64,000 nt of DNA from Folioceros fuciformis (taxonomy: Eukaryota). The translations under genes and the position numbers were made by a program. The stretch covers positions 1 to 64,000 of the forward strand of contig JBNGIO010006046.1 of assembly GCA_049999805.1 (NCBI GenBank). Direction: 5' to 3'. The notes under the pieces were generated by a model. That model saw only the letters and a list, made by a program, of their open reading frames with translations. It searched no databases and was not told where the DNA came from. This document shows, piece by piece, positions 18,388 to 20,891 of this stretch (within the stretch, counting starts at the first letter, position 1; every line of letters begins with the position of its first letter).

Positions 18388-20891
18388 ATGGCAGCCTCCA
18401 CAGAGTATAACAGAGGAGTGCTGCTCGCCGTCCTAGTGACGTGCTGGTTGCAGACCCTGGGCAGCTGCCAGGGCTTAGGCTGGATCATCTTAGGCTCCAC
18501 CGGCCTGCCTACTTGCTCCTATTGCCTGAATGTCTTGAACGCAAATTCGTACCCGACGTACGTCGGTCTGCAGGTGACCATCTTTCGATGCCTCAAGTTC
18601 GATCGCAACGAGCAGTGGGCCGTGGACAACGCTACCAACACAATTTCGCTTCATGACCCGGCGAACAAGACGCTGTGCGTGGAAGCTGGGTTCCAGTCGG
18701 ACTACAACGGCGGGAATGTCACCCTGCTGCCTCTCCACCTCAGTGCTTGCGACGGCAGCGCCAAGCAGCAGTGGTTTTTCGACTCGGCCGCCAGGACTGT
18801 GAGAAGCGGGATAAAGGGTTCGGACGGGGGCCCTTTGTACATGGTGGCGGGAAATCTGTCGAGCCAGGACACGGCCGCTTACTACAACCTCTACCTCAGC
18901 ACCCTCCAGGTGCCGGGGGTTGTTTCGTCTCAGCTCACGTTTCTGCCTGCGTCCAGTCTGTGGAACGACACCTCCGATTTCTTCCTCAATATGAGGAGTG
19001 CAGATCCCGTGCCCAAGCCGGGAAACTTGATCGACAACGGGGGCTTCGAGCGCACTACGGTTCTGGGGTCCTGGCCTGCTGGAGTCAACTGCTCCCAGTT
19101 CACCACTCCTTGCTCCAAGACGGTTTTCTTCAATTATGAGCTCTTCTCCCTGTGCTCGTGGGCCATCGAAAAGCCGCCGTTGCAGGCCATATGGATTCAC
19201 AACCGAGCTCCGGTCTGGACGGCTGCGGAAGGTAACTCCAGCCTGCTGCTTACCAACGGGTTGACCATCAACCAGAGCTTCCCCACAGAACCCGACTCCA
19301 TGTACCTGCTTTCTTTCTCCTTGGCTGGGTATGTCTCGCCCGCCGTCGCAACCGACACCTACGTGCGTTGCTTCAATCAGTCAGGATACGTGACTGTAAC
19401 AACGGACGGCCCCAAGTTCTGGTCATTCGAAGTGGATCAACCCAGCCCAGAAGGAATCACCTTGTGGTTCAACAAGACCTTGGCCTTCACCAGCTCAGGC
19501 TCGGCTACAGCCATCTCCTTTACGAGCGTCGGGTTTTCAGGAACGTGTGGCGCCGTCATAGATGCCGTCCGCGTGACCACCTATATCCCCCCTCCTTCAT
19601 CGCACAGCCACAAGAAAGTGGTCGGGGCAACAGTTGGCTCATCCCTCTTCGTGGCACTCGTTCTCTTCGTGGCACTTCCTCTTGTGCTTTGGAGACAACG
19701 AATGTCCCGTCCGGAAGTCTGCTTGGATCCTCACGCAGTGCACAATGTTCGAATTTTCTCCTACAGCGAGATCCAGAAGGCCACGGCCGGTTGGAGCACG
19801 GTGATAGGGGAAGGAGGATTCAGCACAGTTTACAAGGCAGAGTTCTCGGACGGACTGGTCGGAGCAGTAAAAGTGGAGAAACACCGCCCCCTTAAACTCT
19901 CGCTCTTCGTCCAAGAGGTGACTCTGCTGCAACAAGTCCATCACAGAAATCTGGTCAACCTCCTGGGATTCTGTGCGACCAGAGGTTTGTATCACCACCA
20001 TACATGCTTGCTCTCCTCTGAAAGTTATTCCGTGCCAGACATCTGGCTATCATGTAGGTACGGTTTGCTCCACTCCATTCCTTTCCGCACTTGTCTGTGA
20101 CGCTCAACCTGCAGTACTTCTCAAATTTGTCAGGTCATCGAGTTCTTGTGTTTGAGTATCTCCCCAACAAAACCCTGTACCAAAGGCTGCATCCTCGTGA
20201 GAAAGATGAGGAGGACAACGCCATGCTGCCTTGGGACACTCGGATGAAAATCATTTACGAAGTTGCTTGCGCTCTCGAGTATCTGCATCACGGTACCAGC
20301 CCTCCAGTTGTGCATCGGGACATCAAGTCAGCCAACATCTTGCTCACGGCTACTGATTCCGCCAAGCTTGCTGACTTCGGGCTGTCCAAGGCTGCACCGC
20401 CCGGTGCTACCTCCTTCCAGTCTGTCAACACCTTGGTCAGGGGCTCCCTGGGTTACTTGGACCCCAAGTATGTGCGGACTGGAGTGTACTCTCCCAAGAG
20501 CGACGTGTACAGCTTTGGAGTGGTGGTGCTGGAGACAGTCAGTGGCTACCCAGCCATCAAGGACATGGACCTCCTTTCATACTGGGCTGCCGACTGTCTG
20601 TCTGACCCGTTCCGTGCCTCTGAGATAGTCGACAAGCGCCTTTGTGGAGAGTTAGATGATGCAGATCTTCACATCCTGATCGACCTCGTCAAGATGTGTC
20701 TTCAAGAGGACTCCGACCTAAGGCCCACCATGCAGCAGGTATTGTCATTCCTGGCCGATTCGCACTTCAGCGGATTCCCTTCTCCACAAATGGCGCCCAT
20801 CCCTGATGCACTCCCAAGGACGCCATCAAGTATCGAAACACCGGTGAAATATGCGTACAGTTCCTCAATGTCTTTTTCCTCCTCCAGCTGA
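18388..20891 (+). CDS. Receptor-like Ser/Thr kinase (RLK/Pelle, RD type) with ricin-B-like lectin and DUF642/galactose-binding-like ectodomain; 2 exons (18388-19984, 20134-20891), ~784 aa
   Basis: Signal peptide; ricin QxW repeats (CLNV..C..NEQW, LCVE..LSACDGSAKQQWFF); DUF642-like NLIDNGGFE..QSFPT..YLLSFSLAG..CGAVIDAV; TM helix; kinase motifs GEGGFSTVYKA, AVK, HRDIKSANILL, DFGLSK, GYLDP, SDVYSFG. A GT-AG intron 19985-20133 joins the two ORFs in frame. Confidence 0.93.

Follow-up and report, generated by a model that had tools for sequence, protein, structure and literature searches.

We analysed a stretch of 64,000 nucleotides (nt) of DNA from Folioceros fuciformis (contig JBNGIO010006046.1, positions 1 to 64,000 of the forward strand), hereafter called the window. 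At positions 18388..20891, on the forward strand, lies a gene of two exons for a product of 784 amino acids (aa), in which a leader, an R-type (ricin B-like) beta-trefoil, a single DUF642 domain, one transmembrane (TM) helix and a receptor-like kinase (RLK) domain follow each other from the N-terminus to the C-terminus.

Exon 1 (18388..19984) encodes residues 1-532 and the first base of codon 533. It is delimited by its open frame, by Pfam matches and by alignment to P0006, a full-length relative from Calypogeia (homologues are given by their P numbers), and it contains the leader, the beta-trefoil, the DUF642 domain, the TM helix, a juxtamembrane segment and the N-lobe of the kinase. The start ATG at 18388 stands in the context ACCTCAATGG; its frame begins at 18286 and stays open until 20100, with an in-frame ATG at 18298 as an alternative start. 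The intron (19985..20133) is 149 nt long, of the GT..AG type and of phase 1, and interrupts the kinase domain after ...GFCATRG. The donor reads GAG followed by GTTTGT at 19985, the acceptor AG occupies 20132-20133, and the intron end TTTGTCAG is followed by GT. Exon 2 (20134..20891) encodes the kinase C-lobe with HRDIK, DFG and GYLDPKY, a Ser-rich tail and the TGA stop. The coding sequence joined by script from 18388-19984 and 20134-20891 has 2355 nt and 784 codons, the terminal TGA being its only stop, and the change of frame at the intron is needed for the kinase to continue.

The junction 19984/20134 is supported by homology to full-length relatives. Exon 1 aligns with P0006 up to ...GFC (P0006 residue 573) and exon 2 from P0006 residue 580 onwards; the spacing from GFC to (V/M)LVFEY is six residues in the spliced product and in P0006 alike, so that the two fit without a gap. 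The truncated homologues P0003, P0004, P0017 and P0018 all diverge right past the Gly that matches the end of exon 1 (4/4), as would be expected from read-through into a conserved intron. Hence the splice at 19985-20133 from exon 1 to the kinase exon, proposed in a first-pass annotation made from the letters alone, is probably correct as judged by this gap-free fit and the shared truncation point. The peptide strings that the annotation quoted (NEQW, QQWFF, NLIDNGGFE, AEGNSSL, QSFPT, LSFSLAG and CGAVIDAV) are all found in the translation of 18388-19983. A division into two separate genes, one for the ectodomain and one for the kinase, was rejected, as the kinase N-lobe is already inside exon 1; the fusion of receptor and kinase is thus independent of the splice.

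The N-terminus MAASTEYNRGVLLAVLVTCWLQTLGSCQG resembles a signal peptide. Judged by eye from the translation, the putative peptide covers residues 1-29 (18388..18474, forward strand), with an Arg-containing n-region, the hydrophobic stretch GVLLAVLVTCWL and the end ...GSCQG; the homologues likewise begin with a short hydrophobic leader. In a Kyte-Doolittle scan, 19-residue windows exceed 1.6 only across residues 409-439, with basic residues after them, and the TM helix is placed at about residues 411-435 (19618..19692, forward strand), followed by WRQRMSR. The single TM helix of the first-pass annotation is thereby confirmed, and the product has the topology of a receptor, with the leader (by eye) at the N-terminus, a single TM helix and a cytoplasmic kinase. 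Ten N-x-S/T sequons are present in the ectodomain, before the TM helix, and the ectodomain has 10 Cys residues past the leader, with 2 more within the leader.

The first ectodomain module, at residues about 30-188 (18475..18951, forward strand), is an R-type beta-trefoil of the ricin B or carbohydrate-binding module (CBM) 13 kind, recognised by a sub-threshold Pfam match, a family profile and model folds. The Ricin_B_lectin cut-off is passed by the homologues P0006 (37.9 bits), P0018 (36.9) and P0017 (29.3). A profile of nine family ectodomains matches PDB sequences of SNA-II (E 3.5e-11) and ebulin (8.2e-11), as well as other ribosome-inactivating protein (RIP) B chains, lectin domains of N-acetylgalactosamine (GalNAc) transferases and CBM13 (E to 1e-6). 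The ectodomain was modelled with AlphaFold from an 11-row family alignment (mean predicted local distance difference test, pLDDT, 63.6; predicted template modelling score, pTM, 0.59), and the N-terminal 180 residues were folded separately (pLDDT 68.4, pTM 0.69). The weakest parts of the whole-ectodomain model are its ends, the linker and the gamma lobe, the last two with pLDDT below 50-60. When this model was compared with about 48,000 PDB representatives by VIA-align, residues 1-159 matched the Vibrio vulnificus cytolysin lectin (4owj_A; Z 14.7, root-mean-square deviation 2.2, 128 aligned), the GalNAc-T1 lectin domain (Z 13.3), CBM13 (1knl_A; Z 12.9) and also RIP B chains, the trefoil matches spanning Z 12-14.7. 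With Foldseek, the whole ectodomain model showed the jelly-roll class only, and the trefoil was seen through VIA-align and through the separately folded domain. For the latter the top Foldseek rows shown are all R-type trefoils (E 8e-5 and up), with target TM-scores of 0.66-0.76 to single-domain trefoil lectins.

The lobes of the trefoil differ in what they keep. The sugar site of ricin B we take to consist of an Asp two residues after the first Cys of a lobe, an aromatic residue two before the second Cys, and the Asn-Gln that precedes the Trp of QxW. In the alignment of 11 family members, the Asp position of the alpha lobe holds Asn in 9/11 (Asp in 0/11) and the aromatic position Phe or Tyr in 9/11, after which come Asn (9/11), Glu (10/11) and Trp (10/11); the Folioceros protein has Asn, Phe and Asn-Glu-x-Trp at these positions. 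The beta lobe has the Asp in 8/10, the aromatic residue in 0/11 and the Asn in 0/11, with the Gln and Trp of QxW invariant, and reads Glu, Ser and Lys-Gln-x-Trp in Folioceros. The gamma lobe is without a Cys pair and ends in an (x)FTF-like motif in the family and in QLTF in Folioceros. Thus, of the three Cys-paired, QxW-ended ricin subdomains described at first, two stand, with (E/Q)xW ends, but the third does not. The conserved variant set of residues in the alpha lobe suggests a maintained site.

The second module is a single DUF642 domain, a galactose-binding-domain-like jelly-roll at residues about 210-400 (19015..19587, forward strand), identified by Pfam and by model folds. Pfam DUF642 (PF04862) scores 38.9 bits against a cut-off of 27 over residues 275-396, and the cut-off is also passed by 11/11 family proteins scanned (P0003-P0008, P0013, P0017 and P0018, and P0047 in precomputed Pfam data). 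The NCBIfam model TIGR04362 ‘choice-of-anchor C’, a bacterial DUF642-type model, reaches 44.5 bits, which is below its cut-off. In VIA-align, model residues 181-371 match CBM61 (2xom_A, Z 14.1) and CBM4-2 (4bj0_A, Z 13.7), and further CBM22, CBM16 and pectate-lyase, porphyran and alginate CBMs, within a Z range of 12-14.1 for CBM jelly-rolls; the Foldseek jelly-roll matches are CBM16, CBM61 and CBM4. The signature motifs of DUF642 are given as NGxFExxP and CGPVxD in the accessible text of PMC6651502. The Folioceros protein carries both as NGGFERTT, where the final Pro is absent, and CGAVID, where Ala replaces Pro. In the family, the Phe of NGxFE is kept in 10/10, and the Cys and Asp of CGPVxD in 11/11 and 10/11, respectively. 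The beta-sandwich with DUF642 hallmarks noted in the first pass is therefore well founded in the Pfam score and the CBM jelly-roll matches, and its forecast of a trefoil followed by a jelly-roll holds in both VIA-align and Foldseek, on models of moderate confidence.

The kinase is split by Pfam across the exons, with residues 471-530 in exon 1 and a Pkinase match of 108.5 bits in exon 2. Its N-lobe (residues 471-532, 19798..19984, forward strand), recognised by Pfam and by PDB sequence matches, carries the GEGGFS glycine loop and the AVK lysine, and matches SYMRK (1.8e-9), FERONIA, CERK1 and BAK1. The C-lobe matches 5xd6 (1.7e-38), PBL2, SYMRK, CERK1, FERONIA and IRAK4, and is 52% identical to residues 580-821 of P0006. 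From these matches the kinase can be assigned to the RLK/Pelle (IRAK-type) group, closest to plant RLKs and receptor-like cytoplasmic kinases and to animal IRAK kinases.

The protein is not a one-off. With the ectodomain (18475-19662) as query, HMMER scanned the full set of 1.84 billion representative proteins and returned 24 matches at E up to 0.001, ten of which belong to the receptor family. All three domains (Ricin_B, DUF642 and kinase) are recognised by Pfam in P0003, P0004, P0006, P0013, P0017 and P0018, and also in P0047; P0008 has DUF642 and kinase, P0005 and P0007 have Ricin_B and DUF642 with no kinase part, and P0015 is a short ricin-like fragment. Four ‘unnamed protein product’ sequences, counting P0027, come from Calypogeia fissa (accessions CAM6129573.1, CAM6098840.1 and CAM6117308.1), one ‘hypothetical protein’ from Adiantum nelumboides (MCO5568268.1), and two from Ginkgo: Gb_36539 (P0008), whose ricin B part is undetected by Pfam, and Gb_24069 (P0047) with all three domains. 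The whole architecture is thus conserved in liverwort, fern and Ginkgo, with ectodomain identities of 26-46% to the Folioceros protein. None of the ten family members in the scan bears a functional name, all being unnamed or "hypothetical", and with ten of 24 matches among so many representatives this is not a widespread annotated family. The other 14 matches, one ricin-type lectin (P0009) and 13 DUF642 proteins, are bacterial or metagenomic; several of the DUF642 proteins have bacterial features or names (IPTL-CTERM, Big_9/cadherin, ‘choice-of-anchor C’, Thermoanaerobaculia). In the deposited P0013 of Calypogeia fissa about 100 residues from the trefoil to the middle of DUF642, present in every other member, are missing, which is likely due to an exon skipped in the gene model.

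Other searches gave less. The word index for proteins returned one match for the Folioceros ectodomain, one for the nine-ectodomain profile (8000 candidates scored), and the P0008 ectodomain itself plus one other; it is too insensitive for this family and gives no usable taxonomic range. The protein atlas yielded leads only, with a best score of 0.86 to unnamed clusters and 0.75 to a streptophyte DUF642 cluster. In a maximum-likelihood tree of 12 rows, none dropped, the Folioceros protein groups with P0003, P0004 and P0005 (100/99), the four Calypogeia proteins with each other (100/100), and the two Ginkgo proteins with that of Adiantum (84/90). Support for the deeper forks is weak (67/70), and long branches lead to P0018, P0017 and P0005. 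The tree agrees with an old, small family that may have been retained vertically, with lineage-specific duplication.

Around the receptor gene the window holds other features. About 5 kb upstream, at 12517..13816 on the forward strand, tblastn pieces in three frames reveal a degenerate partial paralogue with ectodomain and TM helix and no kinase, 68% identical in nucleotides to 18418-19661 over 1272 columns and with stops in every frame. This copy is probably a pseudogene that goes back to an old tandem duplication; its reading as an intron-containing gene was rejected, as the frame changes leave no space for introns. Between this copy and the intact receptor gene sit gag fragments of a copia-type long terminal repeat retrotransposon, on the forward strand at 14932-15189 and 15364-15678 (Retrotran_gag_2 at 50 bits and at 23.3 bits, the latter below cut-off). 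Three intron-less open reading frames (ORFs) with pentatricopeptide repeats (PPR) and a C-terminal E motif, at 3382-7089 (forward, 1236 aa), 7475-11665 (reverse, 1397 aa) and 28787-31570 (reverse, 928 aa), cluster around the locus and resemble PPR genes of the organelle RNA-editing type. A kinase C-lobe ORF at 39541-40284 on the reverse strand (Pkinase 135.9 bits), with 28% identity to receptor exon 2, is on sequence grounds assigned to an unrelated kinase gene as one of its exons. The window further contains an armadillo (ARM)-repeat ORF resembling plant U-box proteins (32719-34368, forward) and exons of an SNF2/RING/helicase-C protein (55907-56659 and 57323-58279, reverse).

Compared with the unnamed Calypogeia, Adiantum and Ginkgo proteins, the Folioceros receptor has the same order of domains, the same conserved Cys, Trp and motif columns, the same position of the break in truncated models and the same kinase subtype, marked by AVKVEK, RVHHRNLVNL.GFC and DSAKLADFGLSKAAP. 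Unlike the members from named species, it has Glu at the beta-lobe Asp and Lys in the APE motif, and it clusters with P0003, P0004 and P0005. With the R-type lectins (ricin, ebulin and SNA-II B chains, CBM13 and GalNAc-transferase lectin domains) it shares the beta-trefoil, the disulfide Cys positions and the QxW of the beta lobe. However, the B chains of type-2 RIPs have two trefoils, whereas here there is one with sugar-site residues partly kept, and the partner of the lectin is a receptor kinase instead of a toxin A chain or a glycoside hydrolase. With the CrRLK1L (FERONIA) and LysM (CERK1) receptor kinases it has in common a single-pass RLK/Pelle kinase, to which FERONIA and CERK1 are among the best sequence matches, and an ectodomain resembling carbohydrate modules, but their malectin-like and LysM folds are unrelated to a trefoil with DUF642. 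No Pfam match at E up to 1 was obtained to the ectodomain families of catalogued lectin RLKs (L-, G- and C-type, LysM and malectin).

The seed-plant DUF642 wall proteins, among them BIIDXI (At4g32460), TEEBE (At2g41800), At3g08030 and rice DFOT1, can be likened to the receptor as far as they are described in the accessible text: they share the Pfam domain, both signature motifs and an expected extracellular location. They have two DUF642 domains, are secreted or anchored by glycosylphosphatidylinositol (GPI), and in those descriptions are without trefoil, TM helix and kinase, whereas the Folioceros protein has one DUF642 match with a trefoil before it and a TM helix and kinase after it. Their type is found in none of the 24 matches of the 1.84-billion-representative scan. 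In the available passages of PMC6651502 and PMC13516882 the DUF642 family is confined to spermatophytes, and its members are described as kinase-less proteins with two DUF642 domains. A catalogue of lectins from 21 species, which include Marchantia, Sphagnum, Physcomitrella, Selaginella, Azolla, Salvinia, Picea and Ginkgo, has no entry for a ricin B/protein kinase architecture in its Supplementary Table 3 (PMC6362431). A 2025 fern paper mentions ‘DUF642-kinase’ proteins in ferns and Taxus in the single passage available, listing DUF642 among the domains of unclassified fern RLKs and receptor-like proteins and citing the Taxus protein (PMC12512272). The combination of ricin B, DUF642 and kinase was not found in the full-text literature, with subscription journals and some large RLK surveys outside the scope of that search. 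The earlier statement that no described RLK combines the two ectodomain domains thus stands for the triple combination in the literature searched, but the pairing of DUF642 with a kinase had been noted, in that passage of the fern paper. Likewise, the proposed new RLK class is an essentially undescribed ectodomain class, but the gene at hand belongs to a small family that already has deposited proteins.

We suggest, as a moderately probable reading, that the gene encodes a functional single-pass RLK/Pelle receptor kinase, the ectodomain modules of which bind an apoplastic glycan and the kinase of which is activated by the ligand. Glycan or wall sensing appears the likeliest mechanism. The ligand of one or both modules would be an apoplastic polysaccharide or glycoconjugate, which could be a wall polymer such as pectin, cellulose or hemicellulose, or a glycan of microbial origin. 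Activation of the RD kinase would follow from clustering upon ligand binding or from association with a co-receptor, by analogy with the LysM, WAK and malectin-like receptor kinases. Residue conservation points to the DUF642 sandwich and the trefoil's alpha lobe as the most likely binding surfaces.

Several points weigh against this proposal. The Folioceros trefoil scores 25.5 bits with Pfam Ricin_B_lectin against a cut-off of 29 (E 1.6e-5, residues 45-141), and both structural models are of moderate confidence only (mean pLDDT 63.6 and 68.4). The full set of sugar-site residues assumed above for ricin is found in none of the three lobes over the 11 aligned members, so that a ricin-like binding of Gal/GalNAc cannot be taken for granted, and likeness of fold by itself is no proof of function. 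In the accessible text on seed-plant DUF642 proteins, protein is a ligand too, namely pectin methylesterase (PME) (PMC6651502). The two-module carbohydrate receptor of the first-pass annotation is plausible, but it is tempered by the incomplete sugar sites and by this second kind of ligand, reported there besides cellulose. The same receptor could, as a real though lesser possibility, recognise a protein or peptide, for example a wall enzyme such as PME or a secreted peptide, with the lectin-like folds as mere scaffolds. The incomplete set in both Cys-bearing lobes speaks for such a ligand, and malectin-like receptors bind peptides, as the malectin-like domains of FERONIA do with RALF. Arabidopsis BDX and At5g11420 are also reported to bind the PME catalytic domain, in the text available of PMC6651502 and PMC13516882. 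However, the structural matches of both folds are overwhelmingly carbohydrate-binding modules, the sugar-site positions of the alpha lobe are conserved family-wide as a variant set, and the accessible text has the DUF642 protein At3g08030 binding cellulose in vitro (PMC6651502).

The kinase bears on another alternative. The first-pass annotation called it an intact RD kinase, and GEGGFS, AVK, HRDIK and DFG are indeed present, but the Glu of APE is replaced by Lys (GYLDPKY where ...PEY is usual, in subdomain VIII), which could weaken the C-lobe and counts against the functional receptor proposed above. With a sister copy 5 kb upstream (12517-13816) that is frame-shifted and has no kinase, this substitution would suit a silent or decaying locus, or a pseudokinase that signals as a scaffold only, in a family declining in this genome. 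We regard this as quite unlikely, since the frame runs through 784 codons without an internal stop, both splice sites conform to the canonical type, and the protein has lost none of the invariant Cys, Trp and motif residues of the ectodomain. Every catalytic motif besides the APE Glu is there, and this Glu is itself not fixed in the family (Lys in Folioceros, Gln in three Calypogeia proteins, Glu in Ginkgo P0008), while the C-lobe is still 52% identical to Calypogeia. That the ectodomain and the kinase exon come from different genes, or were brought together by mis-assembly, is most improbable and close to refuted. The intron is supported by homology only, and the full-length homologues in which the kinase is complete (P0006, P0008 and P0013) are automatic annotations, P0013 with a gapped ectodomain; but exon 1 spans the leader, the TM helix and the kinase N-lobe in one open frame, P0003, P0004, P0017 and P0018 share this single-frame arrangement of ectodomain and kinase on independent contigs, and the junction fits P0006 gap-free.

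Hence, the receptor represents a rare and small family, an ectodomain class of plant RLKs that is real, conserved and essentially undescribed. As a tentative view, rather improbable as a whole, we propose that the family is an ancient land-plant receptor family that predates the split of bryophytes and vascular plants and was not detected in angiosperms in the searches run. The ectodomain would represent plant DUF642 in its older form, tethered to the membrane, the secreted or GPI-anchored wall proteins would be kinase-less derivatives or cousins, and the receptor would be an unrecognised sensor of wall polysaccharides or pectin status parallel to the WAKs and CrRLK1Ls. Outside the family, the nearest sequence relatives of the DUF642 part are bacterial, and the module may conceivably have reached early land plants by a bacterial transfer.

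Plant receptor kinases are classed by ectodomain, and new classes have tended to bring new classes of ligand: chitin and Nod factors with LysM, RALF and pectin with malectin-like domains, and pectin with the WAKs. A receptor with ricin B and DUF642 is absent from the lectin-RLK catalogues examined, and DUF642, seed-plant-specific according to reviews, is now placed in a liverwort, a fern and the Folioceros genome. In practical terms the family is small, and no member was found here in the standard angiosperm models. It gives a handle on two questions, the ligands of DUF642 domains and the means by which non-flowering plants survey their walls or microbes.

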